Shown: in pieces, positions 531 to 64,000 of the stretch
How the letters are laid out: each line of letters opens with the position of its first letter
Position numbering within the stretch: the stretch's first letter is position 1
NCBI RefSeq assembly: GCF_006345805.1
Contig: NC_043006.1
Span: 36,890,001 to 36,954,000 of the forward strand
Direction: 5' to 3'
DNA: 64,000 nt
DNA from: Octopus sinensis
Taxonomy: Eukaryota
The notes under the pieces: generated by a model
Databases searched by the model: none
Told to the model about the DNA's origin: nothing
Seen by the model: only the letters and a program-made list of their open reading frames with translations
Position numbers and translations under genes: made by a program

Positions 531-650
531 TCATGAAACTTGGGTCAATGTAGTATTGGCACTCTCTAGGTCAACAACAGGTTCGCAGTGAATAGTAGTC
601 AGACTCCTCATGGCAGGAGACAGCTTGTGTTGGATGCTTTGTATGTAGTT
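531..650 (-). CDS. TMEM198: TMEM198 last coding exon (NYIQSIQHKLSPAMRSLTTIHCEPVVDLESANTTLTQVS*)
   Basis: Acceptor ttctcttctttatttttcag|AAC, phase 0; YIQS matches vertebrate SYIQS; TGA at 533-531. Confidence 0.92.
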   Translation of the reverse strand, partial: NYIQSIQHKLSPAMRSLTTIHCEPVVDLESANTTLTQVS

Positions 651-5879: not shown

Positions 5880-6440
5880 GATGAATGATGATGACGAGTG
5901 ATGATAATTGTGGTGAAGGTGGTGCAATGGTAGAGACAACAGGAGTGAGTGGAGATGATGATGATGCAGACAACTATGATTGTGAAGATGGCATCTATGA
6001 TGGTGGTGGTGAAGATATCAAAGATGATGGCAACGAGGGCGGTGGCAGTGATAATGGTGATGATGGTGGAGATGATGGCAACGAGGGTGGTGGCAGTGAT
6101 AATGGTGAAGATGGGGACATTAAATATGAAGGTGGTGAGATGACAATGATGATGGTGGAGATATCAAAGATGATGGTGGAGATGATGGCAATGAGGGCAG
6201 TGGCAGTGATGATGGTGATGATGATGAGGCTTACATGACAATGATGAGGGTGGTGGCGATGGTAATGGTGGAAACATCAATGATGCTGACAATAAGGTAC
6301 TGATGAGTGGTGGTGGTTGTAGCGGTGATAGATATCAACACCAATAATGGGAGATGCTGATGGTGATAAAGAAGGTGCTACATAATGCTAAAGGTATGTG
6401 ATGATAAAGATAATGAAGGGGTGCTGATAATGATGAGGGC
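5880..6440. repeat. Degenerate (GAT/GGT)n low-complexity tract with internal duplications
   Basis: GATGATGGCAACGAGGG.GGTGGCAGTGATAATGGTGA occurs twice, plus degenerate copies. Confidence 0.85.
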
Positions 6441-6899: not shown

Positions 6900-7782
6900 G
6901 ACATCAGTCTCAGATTGGTTAGACATGCTACATTCCAGAAAACAGAGAAATAGGGGTTAGTGGAGGGACAGAAAGGGATGGATGGAAAGAGGGAGTGGGC
7001 AAGTAGAGAGAATAGGAGGATGACGTGAAATGCGAGAGAAAGAAAGAGTGCATGGGAGAGAGAGGGAGTGAATGAGAGGGTAGAGAGGGTGAGAGAATGA
7101 AGAGGAGTAAAAGAATGAAAAAGTGGAAGGAGATGAGGAGGGAAAGATAGAGATGGAAAGTGTGTGAGATAGAGAGGAAGGAGGGAAAGATAGAGATGTA
7201 AAGAAATGAGAGTGGTTGCTAACAGAGGCAGAGACAAGCAGAATGGAATAGGGGAAGTAGTAACAAGGAAAAGAAGTGGGTGTGACTTAATACAGAAAAG
7301 GAAAGGAGATGAAAGCCAGAAAGGGGCAAAAGACGAAGGATGGAAAAGGAAGAGGAGACCAAAGATGGAAAAAGAGGAGGAGGAGAGCAAAGATGGAAAA
7401 GGAGGAGAAGGAGAACAAAGAGAGAAAAAGAGGAGACTAAAGATGGAAAAGGGGAGGAGACCAAAGATGGAAAGGGGAGGAGAGGGAAGAAAGAGGGGAA
7501 AGGAGGAAGAGACAAAAGATGGAAAGAGGGGAGGAGACTAAAGAGGGAAAGGGAGAAGAGACAAAGGATGAGAAAGAGAGAGATGAAGGATGGGAAAGAG
7601 GAGGGGGAAGAAAGTTAGAAAAGGAGGAAAGAAGAGAGCCAGAAGTGCAAGGAATAAAAAGACAATGTCCCAAAAAATTTTTTTTAAAAAACAGGGTAAA
7701 TTGAAAAAGAAGAGAAAGAAGTGAAAAGATATGTAGAGTGGAAACTGAGCCAATGTGTTAGAGAGAGAGAAAGAGAGAGATA
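6900..7782. repeat. Polypurine (GA-rich) tract with an imperfect GGAGAC(C/T)AAAGATGGAAA minisatellite at ~7330-7570
   Basis: Directly visible strand asymmetry and reiterated motif. Confidence 0.9.
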
Positions 7783-15356: not shown

Positions 15357-15487
15357 CTGAGATATAACATCACCATTGAAGCGCCGAACTTGATATAGAT
15401 GTCGGTACCTCGATTGTTGCTGTTCTCGTTTCTGCTTTGCTCGTATTCTTTGTAGGTTCACTTTGCGGCTTCGTTTGTTCTGTAAAA
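15357..15487 (-). CDS. TMEM198: TMEM198 coding exon (LQNKRSRKVNLQRIRAKQKREQQQSRYRHLYQVRRFNGDVISQ)
   Basis: Acceptor ttttgcag|TT, donor CAG|GTATGT; 131 nt, phase 1-0; basic stretch and RRFNGDV motif as in vertebrate TMEM198 (KRFNGDVLSP); missed by the ORF track. Confidence 0.93.
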
Positions 15488-18447: not shown

Positions 18448-20980
18448 ACACACACACACACGCGCGCGCACACAATTATTATTCATAGCAGACGGAAATT
18501 ACAGAGTATCTTGAGAGCTGAGAGTTTCATGCATTAGCGCTTACCTCTTGGCTCTTGCATTACTCTGTAACTTCCGCAAATTATTAATAATAAAAAATTA
18601 TGTTTTGAGTTCCATTTTCCTGTTTGCATCACCAAACCTCTGTGTGTGTGTGTGTATGTATATGTGTGTGTGCGTGTGTATATGTGTGTGTGTGTGTATA
18701 TATATATATTCTTTTACTTCTTTCAGTCATTAAACTGCAGCCATGCTGGAGCACCGCCTTTAGTCAAGCAAATCGACTCCAGGACCTATTCTTTGTAAGC
18801 CTAGTTTTTGCCGAACTGCTAAGTTACAGGGACGCAAACACACCAGCATCAGTTGTCAAACACACACACACACACACATTGTTAATAAAATATAGTCAAT
18901 GAGTCTACAGTATACTGAATTTTGAATAAGTGCTGTTGGTAAGGAAATGTCTCAAACCTTAAAGGTATTTAGAGATTTAAAGATTTAATAAGAGTGATTA
19001 TATATCATAAAGAGCAGGAAAAATTACATTTATGGATTACATATTGATAAGAATGGAATTATGGGACTTCTATCTATACACAGCTATTATGGATTACTAC
19101 AAAGGATTTTACCATGGGTTTATATTTTTTCTAAATTTTTAGCCCTATGCACATCTGTACCAATAACTTTTTTAAACAACTTTATCACATGTTTTTAAAT
19201 AGCATCTCCCTCATTCGATTAACTACACAGAAATTCATCCTTTTCTCTGACGTGGATAATGATTATCAATTTTGGATTTCATTTTGAAGGGCAATACAGT
19301 CATGAAACGATAAGTAGGACTGAACCAGGAACAATGTGGTTGGTAAGCAAGCTACTTACCACACAGCCACAAATGTGTCTATACATACACATATATATAC
19401 ACACACACACACTCACATATACATATAATCATCATAATCTAATGTTTGTTGTCCATGTATTGGACATTTCAACAGGAGCTGGTAAAGCCAGGGACCACAC
19501 CAGGCTCCATTACCTGTTTTGGCGTGGTTTCTACAGCTGGATGCCTATCCTAAATACCAACCACTTTACGGAATGCACTGAGTCCTTTTTACAAGGCCCC
19601 AGCATCAGTGCTTTTTAGCATTAACCCTTACTGTGCAAAAGCTGAGCATTCACAGTTCTGTGCATGAGCACTTGAGATATGGGGACCAAATTACCTCGTT
19701 TTTGATAGTGAGATACTATCTGGAACTCTCCACATTTCATATGAGATAATATGCATATTATATTTTTTTTACTGGCCAACAGAAAGAGGTTGTATATTTT
19801 TAACATGCTAAATCATGAGCCTGTTGCATGTACTTAATCAGCACAGTGAGATTTAAGGGATTTCATCCTTTGCTACTCATCCAATATGTATATATATATA
19901 TATATATATGATTGATGTTTTGGACTAATAGGTATAAGTTGATTGGTGTGTTTAAGTTTTGAGCAGAGCACTGGCACAGTTTGGGCAACCTGTTTTCATC
20001 TGCAGTGTCAGTTGGGGTAATTATATTAATTAAGTAAAGAGAAGATGGTAGTTTGCACTACTTAATATACTTTTATATACATATACACACACATACATAT
20101 ACGTGGATCAAAACTGTTTGATTCAAATCCCTTGGTACTCTCAGTTTCAAGTGTTGTGCTAATCTTTGGCCAATGGCCAATGCCCAAAGCTTAGTGCCAC
20201 ACATGAAACTCAGAGTACCAAGGAGTCTGAATCAAACTGCTTTCATCCATGCTTTTAACTTTCAATAATGTGCCCTTCGACACACACAAACACACACATA
20301 TATATAGATACTTAATTTATTGTCTGTAACCAGGTAGTGTCTGGCTTCAAATCAATATGTCTGCTGTTATACTACCATTCATCTATTTTAACCCTTTAGC
20401 ATTTAATCTAGTCATAGTTGGCCCTAAACATTCTATCTGGTTCATAATAAAATTGATGAGATCCAACCTTTCACACCTACCCTTCAATGTCATTCTAAAA
20501 ATATACAAACACATCTTTGAAATCTTGAAGCTACAAGATTATGCCTGATAAATAAGTATTGCATTTGACAGAGTAATCAGAATGCTGAAGGATTAAAAGA
20601 TACACGATACACAATAAATGGCCAGCTAGAATTCAAGGAGATAACAATTAGGTGTGGAGGTGAGGAGACAGAATGCAATAATTATATGAATAAATTAATT
20701 AAATCACCAATAAAAAAAAAAAAAATCAATATAAAAATCAGAACCACATGAGTGAGTGCAAAGGTTAAAACAAGGAACGATTAGTCAGAAATCTCCAATA
20801 TCAGTTCATGCCTTTTCAGTGTTAACAACATGCTTTTGAAGTTTGCTATTTTATATAAGATTTTAACCATCACCTTGTTACAAAGAGCACAAAAGATACT
20901 ACTTCCTACAAACAGAGCAGTGTGTGCTCCACAGCCATGCTTACAAATGACCTCCTGTTATTGTCAGAAAGAGTAAAGTT

Positions 20981-23900
20981 CTAATAATAAAAAGCACTGA
21001 CAAACGATCTTTGGTCTGTACTGGCATATGAATCCTGGCTGCAATCAGTGCCAGAAAATGACCCTTTGAGATAATTAGTTCTGGCAAATAATTCTTGATC
21101 AAAGTCAGTCCCAGCAAAAGATTTCTGGTCATAATCAGTCCCAGAATTAGACCTCTTGTCAACGTCTGTACCAGAATAAGACCCCTGCTTAACGTCTGTA
21201 CCACAATTAGACTCCTGATCAATTTCTGTACCAGAATTAGACCTGTCGTCAATGTCTGTGCCAGAGTAAGACCCATTATCAACGTCTGTGCCAGAGTAAG
21301 ACCTGTCATCAACGTCTGTGTCAGAGTAAGACCTCCGGTTAAGGTCTGTGCCAGAAATAGACCCCTGATCAACGTCGGTACCTGAATCAGACCCTTGATC
21401 AACGTCAGTACCAGAATAAGATCCTTGATCAATGTCTGTACCTGAGTAAGATCCCTGATCAACGTCTGTATCTGAGTAAGACCCCTGATCAACGTCTGTA
21501 CCAGAGTAAGAGCTCTGGTTAACATCTGTACAAGAATAAGACCCCTGGTCAATGGCACTACCAGAATAAGAACTCTGGTCAACATTTGTACCTGAATAAG
21601 ATCCCTGGTCAACGTCAGTACCAGAATAAGATCCCTGATCAACATCTGTGCCAGAATAAGATCCCTGATCAACATCTGTGCCAGAATAAGAACTCTGGTC
21701 AATAACTGAACCAGAATAAGAACTCTGGTCAACATCTGTACCAGAATAAGAACTCCGGTCAACGTCTGTACCAGAATAAGAACTCTGGTCAACGACTGAA
21801 CCAGAATAAGAACTCTGGTCAACGACTGTACCAGAATAAGAACTCTGGTCAACGTCTGTACCAGAATAAGAACTCTGGTCAACGTCTGTACCAGAATAAG
21901 ACCCCCGATCATCGTCTGTGCCAGAATAAGACCTCTGATCACCGTCTGTGCCAGAATAAGAACTCTGGTCAACGACTGTACCAGAATAAGAACTCTGGTC
22001 AACGTCTGTACCAGAATAAGAAATCTGGTCAACGTCTGTACCAGAATATGACCCCTGATCATCGTCTGAACCAGAATAAGAACTCTGGTCAACCTCTGTA
22101 TCAGAATAAGAACTCCGGTCAACGTCTGTACCAGAATAAGAACTCTGGTCAACAACTGAACCAGAATAAGAACTCTGGTCAACGACTGTACCAGAATAAG
22201 AACTCTGGTCAACGTCTGTACCAGAATAAGAACTCTGGTCAACGTCTGTACCAGAATATGACCCCCGATCATCGTCTGAACCAGAATAAGAACTCTGGTC
22301 AACCTCTGTATCAGAATAAGAACTCCGGTCAACGTCTGTACCAGAATAAGAACTCTGGTCAACAACTGAACCAGAATAAGAACTCTGGTCAACGTCTGTA
22401 CCAGAATAAGACCCCCGATCATCGTCTGTGCCAGAATAAGACCTCTGATCACCGTATGTACCAGAATAAGAACTCTGGTCAACGTTGGCACCAGAATAAG
22501 AACTCTGGTCAACGTCGGCACCAAAATAAGAACTCTGGTCAACGCCTGTATCAGAATAAGACTCCTGATCATCGTCTGTGCCAGAATAAGAACTCTGATC
22601 ACCGTCTGTACCAGAATAAGAACTCTGGTCAACGTTGGCACCAAAATAAGATCCCTGGTCAACGTATGTACCAGAATAAGACCCCTGATCATCGTTTGTG
22701 CCAGAATAAGACCTCTGATCACCGTCTGTACCAGAATAAGAAGTCTGGTCAACGTCGGCACCAGAATAAGAACTCTGGTCAACGTTGGCACCAAAATAAG
22801 ATCCCTGGTCAACGTCTGTACCAGAATAAGACCCCTGATCATCGTTTGTGCCAGAATAAGACCTCTGATCACCGTCTGTACCAGAATAAGAACTCTGGTC
22901 AACGTCGGCACCAGAATAAGAACTCTGGTCAACGTCGGCACCAAAATAAGAACTCTGGTCAACGTCTGTACCAGAATATGACCTCCGATCAACGTCTGTG
23001 CCAGAATAAGACCCCTGATCAACGTCTGTACCAGAATAAGACTTCTGATCAATGTTTGTACTAGAATAAGACCCCTGATGAACGTCTGTACCAGAATAAG
23101 ACCCCCGATCAACGTCTGTACCAGAATAAGACCCCTGATCAACGTCTGTACCAGAATAAGACTCCTGATCAACGTTTGTACCAGAATAAGAACTCTGGTC
23201 AACATGTGTACCAAAATAAGACCTTTGGTCAACGTTTGTACCAGAATAAGATCCTTCATCAACGTCAGTGCCGGAATAAGATCTCCAATCAACATTGTTG
23301 CTAGAATAAGATCTCTGATTAACGTCTGTATCAGAATAAGAACCCTGCTCAACGTCTGTACCCGAATAAGACCCCCTATCAACATTTTTACCAGTATTAG
23401 ACCTCTGGTCATAATCAGCCTTAGCACGTAACCTCTGGTCAAAGTCAATCCTCAAATTGGATTTCTTGTCAAAATCTGTCTCAAACGATTCTGCCCTACT
23501 GAGAGATCCCTGCCCACTGCCCATTACAACAAACGACATCTGGTCACCATCTGTTCCAAAAACTGATGCCTGGTCAAACTCTACTCCAGGAAAGGAGCCA
23601 TGGTTGCTTTCTGTCCCAGCAAATGAATCTTGGTTATGTCTTTTTCCAACAAGTGACTCTGAGTCAACTTCAGTGCCACCAATGGAACCTGTCACAGCAG
23701 ATGAGTCTTGATTGAAAGCTAACCTGGGAAATGAATTCATACTGAGGTGTGCTCTTGGAAAAACCTCACGAGATATATCTACTCTTACAGGTGACTCCTT
23801 TACATAGCCTGTTGCCCCAAACAAACCCTGGGTGATGCTTGCCCTTGCAAGGGATGCTTCTACCCCATTTTTTCCAACAAGTGATTTAAAAGTATTGATG

Positions 23901-24154
23901 GTTGCAGTATAAGAACCTTGTGGTGTGTATATCTTTGAGAGTGATTTGCTGTAGTATTTTTCCCATCTGAAAACCAAGGTGTCTTCGTTTGTTCTGGTAA
24001 TGAGCCAAGCTCTGTTCCTTGTTGACCAAAATGACGGAATATTCGACAACACCAAAATCCTGATCAAAAAAAGGCAGAAGTATATAATACTGAAAAGTGT
24101 CAAGCTGGCAGAATCTGTGTTGGACAAAATGCTTAGCTGCATTTCTTCTGGCAC
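20981..24154 (-). CDS. Intronic ~1000-aa ORF, Ser/Asp/Gly/Tyr/Thr-rich decapeptide repeat protein (GTDVDQSSYS)n; true 5' end uncertain (acceptor at 24059, ATGs at 24142 and 23740)
   Basis: 1057 open codons, including ~230 codons outside the homogeneous array; degenerate 10-aa periodicity persists at both ends; no frameshifting indel. Confidence 0.7.
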   Translation of the reverse strand: MPEEMQLSILSNTDSASLTLFSIIYFCLFLIRILVLSNIPSFWSTRNRAWLITRTNEDTLVFRWEKYYSKSLSKIYTPQGSYTATINTFKSLVGKNGVEASLARASITQGLFGATGYVKESPVRVDISREVFPRAHLSMNSFPRLAFNQDSSAVTGSIGGTEVDSESLVGKRHNQDSFAGTESNHGSFPGVEFDQASVFGTDGDQMSFVVMGSGQGSLSRAESFETDFDKKSNLRIDFDQRLRAKADYDQRSNTGKNVDRGSYSGTDVEQGSYSDTDVNQRSYSSNNVDWRSYSGTDVDEGSYSGTNVDQRSYFGTHVDQSSYSGTNVDQESYSGTDVDQGSYSGTDVDRGSYSGTDVHQGSYSSTNIDQKSYSGTDVDQGSYSGTDVDRRSYSGTDVDQSSYFGADVDQSSYSGADVDQSSYSGTDGDQRSYSGTNDDQGSYSGTDVDQGSYFGANVDQSSYSGADVDQTSYSGTDGDQRSYSGTNDDQGSYSGTYVDQGSYFGANVDQSSYSGTDGDQSSYSGTDDDQESYSDTGVDQSSYFGADVDQSSYSGANVDQSSYSGTYGDQRSYSGTDDDRGSYSGTDVDQSSYSGSVVDQSSYSGTDVDRSSYSDTEVDQSSYSGSDDDRGSYSGTDVDQSSYSGTDVDQSSYSGTVVDQSSYSGSVVDQSSYSGTDVDRSSYSDTEVDQSSYSGSDDDQGSYSGTDVDQISYSGTDVDQSSYSGTVVDQSSYSGTDGDQRSYSGTDDDRGSYSGTDVDQSSYSGTDVDQSSYSGTVVDQSSYSGSVVDQSSYSGTDVDRSSYSGTDVDQSSYSGSVIDQSSYSGTDVDQGSYSGTDVDQGSYSGTDVDQGSYSGTNVDQSSYSGSAIDQGSYSCTDVNQSSYSGTDVDQGSYSDTDVDQGSYSGTDIDQGSYSGTDVDQGSDSGTDVDQGSISGTDLNRRSYSDTDVDDRSYSGTDVDNGSYSGTDIDDRSNSGTEIDQESNCGTDVKQGSYSGTDVDKRSNSGTDYDQKSFAGTDFDQELFARTNYLKGSFSGTDCSQDSYASTDQRSFVSAFYY
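21051..23450. repeat. 30-bp tandem array, consensus (+) CCAGAATAAGAACTCTGGTCAACGTCTGTA, about 80 units
   Basis: Units stay in column register across consecutive 60-nt lines from ~21121 to ~23400. Confidence 0.98.
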
Positions 24155-24320
24155 TCTGGCATTCTGAGTTCAAATCCTGCCATGGTCAACTTTACCCTAA
24201 GTTCCTTCAAGATCAATAAAATAAAGTACCAGTCAAGTACTGGGGAAGGAATTGGATGTTGACGCAATCAGCTTGCTGCTCCCGCCCTCAAAATCTGCTG
24301 GCCTTGAATCTTGCAACAGA
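24095..24320 (+). mobile_element. SINE family B copy overlapping the first ~20 codons of the long repeat ORF (antisense)
   Basis: AAGCTGGCAGAATC...AAAATGCTTAG...TTCTGAGTTCAAATCCTGCC...AATAAAGTACCAGTCAAGTACTGGGG. Confidence 0.8.
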
Positions 24321-31756: not shown

Positions 31757-31819
31757 CATCAACTTCATCAGAGCTCGGAGACCGATATTTGGCAGATGAG
31801 ACATTATTTCTATGTACTC
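31757..31819 (-). CDS. TMEM198: Probable 63-nt symmetric cassette exon of TMEM198 (R-VHRNNVSSAKYRSPSSDEVD)
   Basis: Polypyrimidine acceptor tttctttactctttag|GA, donor ATG|GTAAGA, length divisible by 3, open in phase 1 (the phase of the surrounding intron), non-repetitive sequence. Confidence 0.6.
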
Positions 31820-38591: not shown

Positions 38592-39720
38592 TCTTCTTTT
38601 CTACTCTAGGCACAAGGCCCATAATTTTTGGGGAGGGGGCAGTCGATTTGATCGACCTCAGTACGCAACTGGTACTTAATTTATCGACCCCAAAAGGATG
38701 AAAGGCAAAGTCGACCTCGGTGGAATTTGAACTCAGAATGTAAAGATAGACATAATACTGCTAAGCATTTTCACTGCTAAAAAATGCTAACATTTCTGCC
38801 AGCTCACTGCCTTATAACAATAATAATAATTCTTTCTACTATAGGCACAAGGCCTGAAATTTGGTGGGAGGGGGCCAGTTGATTAGATAAACTCCAGTAC
38901 TTTACTGAATTTATTGACCCTAAAAGGATGAAAGGCAAAGACGAAATTTGAACTCAAAATATAAAGACAGACAAAATACCGCTAAGCATTTCATCCAGTG
39001 TGCTAACGATTCTGCCAGCTTGCTGCCTCATAATAATAATAATAATTTATAATATAGGTACAGAGTCAAACATATGAGGAAAAGGAAACAAGTAATGATA
39101 TCAAGTACAGTTCTTGTACGTATTTGATTGTCCTTGGAAAGATGAAAGGCGAAGTTGACTTTGCTGAGATTTGAACTAAGAACATATAGGGATGTAACAA
39201 TACTTGAATGTCTAACAATTCTGGCAATTCACTGACTTATCTGACCCCAGGACATAGTGAACAAAAACAAATAATACAAGGCATTTTGTCCAGCACAGTA
39301 ATAGTTCAGACAATTAACCATTATGATGATGATGATGATGATGTCCTGAATAATCCTTTCTACTATAGGCACAAGGCCTGAAATTCTTTAAGAGGTGGAG
39401 TTAAAACGATTACTTTGACCGCAGTACTTGACCTCAGCAGAATTTGAACTCAGAACATAGAGATAGGTGAAATGCCACTTAACATTTTGTCTGGCATGCT
39501 AACAACTCTGCAAGTTCACTGTCTTAATTATCATAGCATTATTTCTAATTTAGGCACAAGGCCAGCAGTTTTGAGTTGTGTGTGTGTGTGTGTGTGTGGT
39601 GTGTGTGTGTGTGTGTGTGTGGAAAGGGGGGGGGTAGTTGATTCAATTGATCCCTATGCTTTATTTTATAGATCTTGGAAAAGTGAAAGGCTAAGTTGAC
39701 ATCAGCAGTATTTGGACTCG
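38330..39720 (-). mobile_element. Head-to-tail cluster of ~6 SINE family B copies with (AAT)n/(GAT)n spacers
   Basis: Same motif as at 57470-58520, more CpG-decayed. Confidence 0.85.
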
Positions 39721-40912: not shown

Positions 40913-41753
40913 AGACAAAATGCTTAGTGTTATTTCATCCGTCTTTAAGGTTTGAATTCAAGAAATAAGGACCAGTTGAGCACTAGGGCCAGAGTACACG
41001 ATTTATTCCCTCCCACAAATTTTCCATTGTCTTTTAAAGAATTTTTAAAACTAAAATTTTGAGGGATTTAGTAAACCAAGTAACTTATTTTTTGCTTGGT
41101 TGGAGTTTGAACACTAGTAAAAGGCTTCATAACTTAGCATTAATTATCTCTTATATAAATATCGATAGAAGCTTCTAATTGAGGCCCTTCACTCCTAATT
41201 ACATGACCATCATCATTTTAACGTTCATTCTTCCATTCTGACATGGAGTGAAGGGGTGGTTTACAGTAATTGATATTTAGCTGGATTGTGCATAAGCGTG
41301 TCTTTGTGTACGTGTGTGTGTGTTAGCATGAATGTGCATAAATGTATTTTGTGTGTATGTGTATGTTGTTTAGCCCTGATCAAGAAAATGTTTGGTTAAA
41401 GGCTTTCCACCTATGACCATCCATTCTAATTTTCAGACGGTCTACTATAACTATATTATTCAAATTGCTCTTCTTTTATGATATATGATTTGAAGGGGAT
41501 TTACTTGTACTTCTAGCAAAATAAAGCAACCATGCAGAGTCCCCTCATTAATTCTGTGATGTGGTAGTTTGTGTGTAAATATACTCTCTTCCATAAAATT
41601 AGATTAACTCCTTGGTTAACACCCTTGGTTAGTTATATCATAGATACACGCATACGCACACAAAGGTACAAGCACTCACATACACACAAAAACATACAGA
41701 CAAGTGCACAGACATACATTTACAGGCACACACATGTCTTAAAAATTACTTAC

Positions 41754-42317
41754 TTTCGTGATGGTCTGCGCTCTGTCCTGTTATTCTCCACTGGGTCAAG
41801 GAGCCTACAAGGAAACAGAAAGGCCAGCAACCGAGAATCAGCCAGCTGTACCAACAGGGAGGGTCAGAATCCTCCACTTTGATACACTCCCACACATAGT
41901 TCACGATCAGGAATTTTTCTATAAAATAGTCCAGGCAAATCGCCATCAAGGCAGCACCAAAGACGCTTGTACCGAGAATGGTGCCTGCCTTTTGGAACTT
42001 GAGAGTCAGCAGCGCAAATAAAATACCAACACCAATGAGAACACCGATTGGTATCCATTTGTTGGCAATGTTATAGAACTGGTCCACTGTGACCAACACT
42101 CCGGTCGAGAGACCGACGCCAAAGTGGAATCCGGTCAGAAAAAGTCCAACATACTGGACCAACATGGTAATTAGTCCGCAGATTATGCCGGCACCCACTG
42201 CAATGCCAATGTTTGCTTCTTTCGGCAATACTGTCTCTTCTATACAAACTATATATACAACCACTGTGCCAAAGATGAAACCAGTTAAGAACATGACAGC
42301 CTTGAAGAATCGGTAAC
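41754..42317 (-). CDS. TMEM198: TMEM198 second coding exon, multi-TM DUF4203 core (GYRFFKAVMFLTG...WRITGQSADHHE)
   Basis: Acceptor ctttcag|GT at 42318/42317, donor GAA A|GTAAGT at 41754/41753; 564 nt, phase 1-1; Gly-rich hydrophobic helices, DYFIE and CWYSW motifs. Confidence 0.95.
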
Positions 42318-47328: not shown

Positions 47329-47533
47329 CAAAGAATGTGTAGACAATTCCAAAGAGAAAACACATGGAACATATCACAGCTGGAATGACTGTGTAGTCGT
47401 AATCAATCTTGGCACAGCGTGCAGGCCTCCGACTTGGGCTCATGCTTATATTGTTTGGGAACACTGTGGTTCTAAACATTAATTGTGGAAGTGGGTGGTT
47501 TACGTGTGGTGGTGACAGCTCTGATGTCTCCAT
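47329..47533 (-). CDS. TMEM198: TMEM198 first coding exon (METSEL...CAKIDYDYTVIPAVICSMCFLFGIVYTFFG)
   Basis: ATG at 47533; hydrophobic TM1 of TMEM198 type; ends TTT G|GTAAGT (phase 1) and joins the next exon to give FFGYRFFKAVMFLTG, matching the recalled TMEM198 motif FGYRCFKAVLFLTG. Confidence 0.93.
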
Positions 47534-48218: not shown

Positions 48219-49043
48219 ACAAGGTGCTATGGACAAACTGTTGTCATTTTATATTCTAAATTTTGCGCATTGTTATTGATTTTGGTGATTACACAGTATA
48301 GTAGGGTCAGTTGAGCACAGTCTGTGAGAAAAACAGCACCATGATGCAATTCACTCTGTCAGAAATTTGGAAACAACATGCTGTACAGCTTGCCATTCAC
48401 GCCGGAAGATTCAATATGAACATTTCAGAGTGTTTGAGTGTCAACCTGAGGACAGTGCAGTCTGAAGACATGTACCGAGAGTGATAAAAATCTAACATTC
48501 TGTCAACATCATGGTGTTTGGAGTGGTCACTAGTGATGGTGACGTAATACCTTCATTCATCTTCCCACACGGCCTCAGACTCAACATGGAGGCCTGCATC
48601 AAGTGCCTGGAGAAGGTAGTCCTGCTCTGGATCAAGAGGGTACCTGCTGGAAGACCCTATGTCTGGCACCATGCCACACAAGCAGGAGATCCCAGTCATG
48701 GCTGTCAGACAATTTCTGTGACCACATCACCCCTAACATCTGGCCACCTAACTCACCAGACTGCAACCCCTTTGATTATTATGTGTGGGGTGCAGTTGAG
48801 CAAGAGACCAACAAAACTCCTTGCAATACCAAAGATAAACTGATGGCAAGGATTATGGCAGTATTCATCAGTTTTGTCCAGAAGAGATGCAGCAGATTCC
48901 GAAGTCATCTGAAGTCCGTGGTTGAAGCCAATGGTGATTTTATTGAATAAATTTACTCTTTAGTATTTCAAGATGTTTTTATGTAATTTTGGTAAGTTTG
49001 TGCATAATTCAGATGATAGCTTATTCACTTCACTGCAACCTAT
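48219..49043 (+). mobile_element. Decayed Tc1/mariner-superfamily DNA transposon with frameshifted transposase fragments
   Basis: ORFs 48511-48843 (MVFGVVTSDGDVIPSFIFP) and 48603-48950 (WPPNSPDCNPFDYYVWG...VVEANGDFIE) carry the third catalytic Asp motif; degenerate TACAAGGTGC / GCAACCTATA ends. Confidence 0.85.
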
Positions 49044-62404: not shown

Positions 62405-64000
62405 TGGACACGCGTGCCTAGACGAAGAAAGGTAAAAGAACTTCACAAAAATAAGTTCAGAAAATGATGTTGCCAACATGCTTTGAAATTCCATCTTTAT
62501 GTATTCTGATCAGACTGTCTGTCTCTTTCTCTTTGCAATGCATACACATGCACGCCTATGCACACAAACAAGCGCACATACTTGCTCCCATCAACCCCAT
62601 ACACGTGCGAGCGAGCGAGCACACAAGAGCCCCATACGTGCAGAATAAATCTATGCACATAACTAGTTCTGTGCACAATAGGTGTGTGTGTGTGTGTGCA
62701 GAGAGAAAAAGAGAGAATGTGTGTGTGTGTGTGTACACAGGTGTATAACACATCACACCAACACCCCTCCTACAGACCCCACAGCTTACAACACCATATA
62801 CCGTTAAATAAATAAATAAAATTTCACTAATTTTCCCCAAATGTATATAAAAAAAAATAAACCGTCACAAATAGCAAACCCAATTCGGTTAAAACATAAA
62901 ACCCCTTTTCTACTCTCCCTTAAAAATAAAAATAACCCACTTCAAGTACGACGATGACAATACCAGAAGATTCCCCCACCCACCGTCTACACTTCCATCC
63001 TTACCGTCATCTCCTAAAAAAAAAACCCTTAATTTATGAAACATGATTACAGGCCAGGTGAATGTTTTCGATGACATCATTTTGAAATATAAACAGCATA
63101 GCCTTGTTAGCATGTGTCTAACCTTAAACTCTGTGTGTGTGTGTGTTCCTGGTGGTGGTGGTGGTGGAGGAGGTCTCTTAGCTTGTACCCCCTCTACATA
63201 CACACTCCTTAAACCGCCCTCTTCCTCTTTTCTCTCTCTCCCTCACACATACATATATATATATACCTCTATGTTTACCTTTTATTAGAAACATGAGCTC
63301 AGCTTGCAACCATTTCGGTGTTGATGCATCAGAAAAGCCAAGAGATGCTGTTATAGATTGAGAGAGAGAGAGAGAGAGGAGCTAATAAAAGACGAGTGAG
63401 GCAGGTAAAAAGAAACGGTGATGGGAAGAGGTGGTAGGTAAGAGAAGTGAGGTCAGAGGTGGGTGTAGCGGTAGGGGGGGAACTGAAAGAGTGAGAAAAG
63501 GGGAGTGTGATGACGGAGTGACTGTAAGGTAGAGACGGATGGATTGCAGAGAAGGGGAGGAGAAGGAGAAATAAAAAAAATAATATAGGGGGTGAGGGGT
63601 GGAGTGGGCAGTAAAGAAAGTAATGAAAGTAGGTGGAAGAAAGAGCAAATGGAGGGGGTGGGGTGAGATGGGACAAAAGATTTTTAAAAAAATGTGATAT
63701 TAGCAAGCAGAGAGGAGGTGAGGTATGTGTGGGGGAAACCAACGTGACACTTCAAGAGCCTCGATGGGAGACAATACCAGTGGGGACCAGTTGCCCGTAT
63801 CCCTCCCATCCACCTCATCCAGTTAACTCTAAACCCAGATGTTGGAATGAAGGAAAAAGTATGCTGCTAGCTTTAAGCCTGCCTAATTCCGGAGCTGTTA
63901 TTGTTGCTGCCAGTTGCTGTTCATATGTGCACATTCTCGTAGTAGCAGAGGGCGGGAAACATTATCAGATTGTGGAATTGGTTAGACGTTGGAGTGAGCA

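Follow-up and report, generated by a model that had tools for sequence, protein, structure and literature searches.

How is the long repeat open reading frame (ORF) inside the TMEM198 gene of Octopus sinensis reached by splicing, when the known exons of the gene end in the wrong phase to join it? We addressed this question in a window of 64,000 nucleotides (nt), the whole stretch that was analyzed (NC_043006.1, positions 36,890,001 to 36,954,000 of assembly GCF_006345805.1). Octopus TMEM198 occupies the minus strand of the window, and the repeat ORF (24169-20981) lies on the same strand between cassette exon B2 and exon C (Table 1). The original prediction had noticed a splice acceptor near the head of this ORF together with a phase puzzle. 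The explanation that we tentatively favor is that the ORF belongs to an unannotated alternative last exon, here called exon X, which may be entered through a tandem donor 4 nt downstream of the main donor of exon B. We give this reading a probability of roughly 0.3; it and the gradings of the alternatives are judgements from likelihoods and priors, not computed posteriors.

As predicted, a strong 3' splice site lies within TMEM198 on the same strand. Splice scores here come from a generic matrix built on approximate frequencies, without octopus training. With its AG at 24061-24060 and 24059 as the first exon base, the site scored 8.5 bits, compared to 6.2 to 11.9 bits for four real acceptors. 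A score of at least 8.5 bits was reached by 3 of the 1571 AGs of the B-C intron, this acceptor counted, and one of the other two (38427) is inside a copy of a short interspersed element (SINE). The 19 aligned copies of the SINE that lies just upstream extend no lower than 24087, and so stop short of the acceptor tract. At the other end, the stretch from 24059 to 20408 is free of polyadenylation (poly(A)) hexamers, as compared to 2.1 per kb in the upstream intron; the first are at 20407 and 20321, the latter with a GT-rich tract after it that must be read with the caution that GT repeats are common in the window. The hexamer-free span and the AATAAA at 20321 fit a 3.7-kb terminal exon running from 24059 to about 20300, and 24059 is quite probably its used acceptor. 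A second AG that had been proposed as an entry (first exon base 23966) scored -3.3 bits, which is poor, and the phase-1 AGs inside the ORF head, considered in the same role, were all weak.

The exon map defines the phase conflict. Translation of A-B-C-D is identical to the O. sinensis isoform X4 protein (339 residues), which attests the skipping of B2. Exon B2 itself was found through homologues, as proteins of O. bimaculoides (X2), Argonauta and cuttlefish contain it; the A-B-B2-C-D translation differs from protein P0003 at 2 aligned positions, one of which is the terminal stop. Phase 1 is shared by the donors of A (47329), B (41754) and B2 (31757), while the repeat frame requires phase-2 entry at 24059. 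The coordinates and phases of the original prediction were therefore correct, and its statement that the upstream donors are phase 1 applies to A and B and extends to B2; its list lacked B2 and the phase-2 tandem donor at 41750. Entry in phase 1 gives the 66-residue tail that had been foreseen, made of the junction codon and 65 codons and closed by the stop at 23862-23860.

Is the repeat frame coding? Taken alone, the 77-unit core of the array is weak evidence, because two of its three frames are open from the unit sequence itself, and no clear synonymous excess was seen in the core among distinct variant alleles. The degenerate zone above it is strong evidence for a coding repeat frame: over its 177 codons the repeat frame has no stop, compared to 10 and 16 stops in the other frames, and this was matched by 0 of 5000 shuffles. 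Six of the units lie above ATG 23740. They keep the exact 30-nt register up to 23923 with no net indels, and each ranks among the top 5% of a null built by shuffling, in the repeat frame only, at 43% identity to the core consensus. When neutral decay of these six units was simulated, they stayed stop-free in 5% of runs and, assuming 1 indel per 10 to 20 substitutions, indel-free in less than 0.6%. Their identity by codon position was flat (0.38/0.47/0.43), which counts against coding constraint. All 106 codons from 24058 to 23741 are free of stops (P 0.0008 by shuffles). Together, the in-register units and the open codons above ATG 23740 indicate that translation most likely enters above 23923.

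Among the 24 phase-2 GT/GC sites in A, B, B2 and their read-through, 41750 is the only donor that keeps the whole membrane core, and the two sites that score above it both truncate the protein. Joined to 24059, it is in frame and encodes 1283 residues; joined to C or B2, it meets an early stop after 296 or 260 residues. The +4 donor scored -1.0 bits, compared to 4.55 for the main donor of exon B, and ranks joint 4th among 21 comparable +4 sites in the window. An internal donor of exon B at 42155 (1.0 bits, 1148 residues) was rejected as it truncates the membrane core. According to the available part of a study of human tandem sites, shifts of 4 nt in either direction are the commonest minor donor shifts, and the frame-disrupting ones are removed by nonsense-mediated decay (NMD) (PMC8055015).

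We infer from these features that, when X is chosen and B2 skipped, exon B would sometimes be cut at its second GT, placing X in phase 2. In the 1283-residue product, the TMEM198 membrane core would be followed, after a short linker, by an acidic Ser/Gly/Tyr decapeptide tail of about 980 residues that replaces the RRFNGDV tail. With B2 or C as its partner, the +4 donor would lead to an early stop and removal by NMD, so that the +4/X pair would be the sole survivor, and the main phase-1 donors joined to X would yield a short-tail form of 322 or 343 residues. A membrane protein with a repeat tail of about 1000 residues, one of the outcomes proposed originally, thus still leads, while the unseen phase-shifting exon proposed to produce it gives way to the +4 donor, as no credible exon was found.

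The head of exon X has a further property that bears on its reading, as it lacks stop codons in every frame, the last stop triplet upstream being at 24066, within the acceptor. None of 5000 dinucleotide shuffles reproduced this openness. Among 3378 all-frame stop-free runs of the minus strand the head ranks fifth in length, and the four that surpass it are in microsatellite or pyrimidine-rich tracts. In synonymous recoding, an all-frame-open head arose with P 0.00035 when the repeat protein was fixed and 0.0035 when the phase-1 protein was fixed; with a switch of frame, P was 0.0002 to 0.004 over 11 switch points. Given two open frames, the third was open in 0.8 to 23% of cases. These values favor the view that two frames of the head have been read. 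The phase-1 and repeat frames are both open over 195 nt, and they are the frames reached by donors 41754 and 41750; we propose that the head has no stops because it is read in both. In its fullest form, the idea is that the 4-nt donor wobble would act as a switch between short-tailed proteins of 322/343 residues and the 1283-residue membrane protein, with the head kept stop-free in every frame, the 77-unit tail newly evolved and NMD pairing each donor with its exon; this whole we regard as doubtful.

The head also shares an exact 14-mer (23996-23983) with the start of exon C (15482-15469). The match has a blastn E value of 0.25 and was the top one of 276 intron windows, is not significant at the protein level, and is probably due to chance. 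Descent of the head from a duplicated TMEM198 exon was considered and rejected: unrelated windows beat its alignment to exon B, and protein tests were not significant in any of the three frames.

Several observations weigh against entry through the +4 donor, besides the generic nature of the scoring matrix. The site is weak, as 293 of the 1672 intron GTs score as high, and a +4 GT is present at 21 of the 42 strong donors in the window from the consensus alone. In the human data, +4 sites are under-represented among the significantly expressed minor sites, in the available part of the source (PMC8055015). The all-frame openness of the head was noticed post hoc, and codon scores for the head were 0.4 in the repeat frame, -7.1 in phase 1 and 3.6 in phase 0, which gives no support to phase 1 as a coding frame, on a crude measure that was clear in only 2 of 4 control exons and does not single out a frame for the head. 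Protein searches were also negative: for homologues of the repeat ORF among proteins of 563 to 1794 residues, 0 of 1179 candidates passed; for the 66-residue tail, 0 of 16 candidates passed, which is weak evidence; and no octopus TMEM198 isoform of more than 361 residues was found among 120 listed of 128 matches (329 to 2000 residues). These protein negatives are weak, as each 90% cluster appears in the listed matches through one representative, and assemblies frequently mask or break repeat ORFs.

Table 1. Features of the TMEM198 locus and exon X in the window (positions are those of the window).
Feature	Position	Strand	Remarks
TMEM198 coding exon A	47329..47533	-	acceptor 47723; main ATG 47533; phase-1 donor 47329
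TMEM198 exon B	41754..42317	-	564 nt; phase 1 at both ends; membrane core, Pfam PF13886
Tandem donor of exon B	41748..41753	-	second GT 41749-41748, 4 nt downstream; exon B to 41750 is phase 2; TAA/GTAATT
Cassette exon B2	31757..31819	-	63 nt; phase 1/1; no usable phase-2 donor
SINE-like repeat copy	24097..24245	+	antisense to gene; holds ATG 24142; ends about 35 nt before acceptor AG
Polypyrimidine tract and AG acceptor	24060..24085	-	outside SINE
Exon X head	23889..24059	-	171 nt without TAA/TAG/TGA in any frame; open 57/65/1025 codons for phase-0/-1/-2 entry
Phase-1 reading	23860..24059	-	66-residue alternative TMEM198 tail; 322 residues from B, 343 from B2
Repeat ORF past acceptor	20981..24058	-	1025 codons and stop; 22% Ser, 15% Asp; net charge -120
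Degenerate 10-codon units	23390..23923	-	stop-free in repeat frame only; register begins at 23923
Tandem array	21099..23411	-	77 copies of 30-nt unit; consensus peptide DQSSYSGTDV; 0 indels
Poly(A) signal AATAAA	20316..20321	-	followed by GT-rich tract; ATTAAA at 20407
TMEM198 exon C	15357..15487	-	encodes RRFNGDV; phase 1 in, phase 0 out
TMEM198 last coding exon D	531..650	-	

The alternative that survives best, serious if improbable, is that a single base is missing within 24057-23924, through an assembly error or a recent loss-of-function allele, in which case X would be an ordinary phase-1 last exon and the product TMEM198 with a repeat tail, spliced from the normal donors. Candidate runs for the lost base are A5 at 23961-23957 and T4 at 24057, 24031 and 23973; the A6 run at 23873 does not qualify, being part of a 16-mer that is duplicated in frame 228 nt downstream (23884-23869 and 23656-23641, two degenerate units with recent common ancestry). 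This explanation agrees with the phase 1 of every upstream donor and with a phase-1 frame that is open over the whole head, and a frame switch at 23997-23922 would make a stop-free head at most about 10 times likelier (0.0014 to 0.0038, compared to 0.00035 for the repeat frame only). However, the 4020 coding nt of the window, the 77 repeat units included, contain no indel, and the phase-1 frame is the worst by codon likelihood.

Next comes an unseen phase-2 exon, which might be a weak cassette that shifts the frame or might be the opening exon of a distinct nested transcript, possibly beyond the window. Such an exon would account for the strong acceptor and the constrained frame without any change to TMEM198, and 11 of the 75 donors of at least 2 bits above 24100 close an ATG-started phase-2 frame. 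On the other hand, none of the 11 was convincing, the strongest (48757) being in a DDE transposase remnant; the 14 open phase-1-to-2 cassette candidates obtained from 92 acceptors were all weak; and the best intronic cassette reached 9.1 bits combined, with a SINE-like acceptor, compared to 10.7 to 18.4 for real exons. The openness of the other two head frames (P 0.00035) would also be left without explanation, and we consider an unseen exon doubtful. The remnant itself (48496-48950, plus strand) is a broken DDE-family transposase upstream of exon A, with a Pfam DDE_3 match at E 0.002 that is under the cut-off.

It is also rather unlikely that translation begins at ATG 23740 in a transcript spliced at 24059, giving a protein without a signal, or that X is a recent relic exon whose translation has been lost. 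ATG 23740 has an A at position -3, no protein or transcript-derived record was found, and the two open frames of the array core, with no clear synonymous excess, also speak for this reading. Against it, three out-of-frame ATGs come first, the six units in register and the 106 open codons are upstream of ATG 23740, and the degenerate zone is stop-free in the repeat frame, compared to 10 and 16 stops in the other frames. The original prediction gave the length of this ORF correctly as 919 residues; as the sole start, ATG 23740 is unlikely.

An unspliced nested gene beginning at ATG 24142, in which the apparent pyrimidine tract would encode a signal anchor, seems to us improbable. Its ORF of 1053 residues stands in a frame open from 24169, and the best 19-residue hydropathy is 2.56. 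However, the hydrophobic run results from reading the pyrimidine tract as codons, which had been suspected from the start, and the ATG, judged by the aligned copies, is an inherited triplet of the SINE family that is present in 6 of the 12 other copies covering the position, as the prediction of a SINE origin implied. A mosaic of repeats lies upstream, and the all-frame stop-free run starts at the acceptor rather than at the ATG. Sense copies of the same SINE family at 38919, 38427 and 30273 (minus strand) provide strong decoy acceptors of 7.5 to 9.7 bits in the intron.

Direct splicing of exon A to X is more improbable still. From the main ATG it would produce a 134-residue single-pass stub, and from a second, out-of-frame ATG at 47372, which is open to donor 47329 in phase 2, a repeat protein of 1040 residues with a hydrophobic N-terminus like a signal peptide. 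The donor is real, strong (4.8 bits) and in frame, the best 11-residue hydropathy is 2.36, and a dual reading of the head is implied. However, five exon-A ATGs precede 47372, 31% of synonymous recodings create an ATG of this kind, and the hydrophobicity presumably comes from the T-rich codons of the membrane helix.

A programmed -1 frameshift that would carry ribosomes out of the phase-1 tail and into the repeat frame at TTTAAAT (23890-23884), which we take to belong to the slippery heptamers and which is in the correct frame for a shift in the correct direction, is very improbable, since an in-frame heptamer occurs in 19% of shuffles, no stable downstream stimulator was found (z +0.9, and -0.5 to -1.9 in four further windows, with pseudoknots outside the model), and even before the slip site, at 23923, a unit matches the repeat profile when read in the repeat frame (p 0.0001). 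Editing of the TAG at 23862 to a sense codon was rejected, as the frame stops again about 20 codons on and never joins the repeat frame.

Returning to the +4 donor and its predicted product, the long protein has 125 S/T-x-x-D/E motifs, and it has no hydrophobic segment in the tail, compared to five in the TMEM198 part. Most probably the tail is disordered, with an abundance of kinase-type sites. The C-terminus of TMEM198 is cytoplasmic. In vertebrates, TMEM198 has been tied to LRP6 and casein kinase, in the available part of PMC12157921, and it may be speculated by analogy that the tail is a casein-kinase substrate or scaffold.

The 10-residue unit consists of two pentamers resembling the [STAV][DN][LF][STR]G consensus of pentapeptide/decapeptide repeat beta-helix proteins, as that consensus appears in the available part of PMC8145042, although the octopus pentamers center on V/Y and not on L/F. 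Pfam matches fell below the cut-off (PF13599, E 3.5e-9, 37 bits against a gathering cut-off of 38; PF25296, E 2.2e-5, 24.7 against 45). AlphaFold2 twice gave models of low confidence, with a predicted local distance difference test score of 39.7 (periodic strands) and 34.5 (no structure). As the Pfam matches were below cut-off and AlphaFold2 was not confident, we do not class the tail as a pentapeptide repeat protein, which it resembles. Sequence matches in the PDB were low-complexity (eIF3a) or weak beta-solenoid. Within the array, multi-unit higher-order blocks are repeated at 22960-21700, a sign of recent unequal crossing-over, and the edges are more diverged than the middle. The +1 frame is open for 836 codons across the array (20941-23451, minus strand) and reads as a hydrophobic VLILVQTL-type repeat that has no Pfam match; this openness probably follows from the unit sequence.

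Other candidate splice sites were seen on the minus strand. A donor at 23724 (CAG/GTTAGC, 4.0 bits) lies 336 nt into exon X; together with the normal phase-1 donors it would create a poison cassette whose stop precedes the junction to C by 138 nt. A weak donor at 21382 (1.5 bits) is phase 1 of the repeat frame, and the chain of exon B to +4, X to 21382, C and D would be wholly open, with 1233 residues and the RRFNGDV tail kept. Positions 63005 and about 63279 mark possible non-coding 5' exons or a TMEM198 microexon, with a donor of 5.5 bits at 63005, below a CT-rich tract. The C-D intron holds, at 6007-6285 and 7331-7628, a 110-nt duplicated GATGGT-rich tract, a purine-rich 25-nt repeat and short low-complexity ORFs.

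Compared to 50% cluster representatives, the repeat ORF gave 18 weak matches, all on repeat-like stretches, and the four that were inspected are unrelated repeat-bearing proteins. P0125, an unrelated DENN-domain protein, has at residues ~250-355 a 10-residue repeat of like rhythm with 43% identity to the octopus units, a resemblance that is likely convergent. Bacterial and archaeal genomes gave 14 pattern matches, none confirmed, so that neither transfer nor contamination is indicated, and no Rfam family was found in 15000-48000. TMEM198 in octopus had no match in the openly searchable literature and none in papers on cephalopod, mollusc or squid isoforms among the matches listed; for orphan repeats, the matches listed held only unrelated work.

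The proposed donor is like the +4 tandem alternative splice sites (TASS) of the available part of PMC8055015 in that a second GT lies inside the GTAAGT consensus, is frame-disrupting and would be NMD-sensitive with the usual next exon. It differs in that the octopus site would be rescued by a specific terminal exon that opens a frame of 1025 codons. Dual- and triple-coding exons and non-triplet splicing are already known (PMC13247117; bioRxiv 10.64898/2026.05.28.727796), as are splicing-accessible coding 3' untranslated regions (PMC7392665), to judge from the parts of these sources available. The proposed octopus case would share with non-triplet splicing isoforms one exon read in two frames with a short and a long C-terminus, and its overlap of 195 nt exceeds the 60-nt threshold given in the available part of PMC13247117; unlike those cases, its long frame is a lineage-restricted tandem array of about 1000 residues in a putative intronic last exon.

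The repeat exon is real, unannotated and constrained, the phase conflict is real, and the all-frame-open head is an added oddity. Each candidate mechanism is of an already known kind, and one of them, the one-base error, is an artefact. Were that error the true answer, the locus would still hold an unannotated large isoform and call for an assembly correction. If entry through the +4 donor is true, this would be a clean case of a minisatellite captured as coding sequence via non-triplet splicing, by a shift that is usually deemed noise, and the octopus version of a conserved membrane protein linked to Wnt-receptor phosphorylation would have gained a kilo-residue repeat tail that is absent from the searched protein sets.

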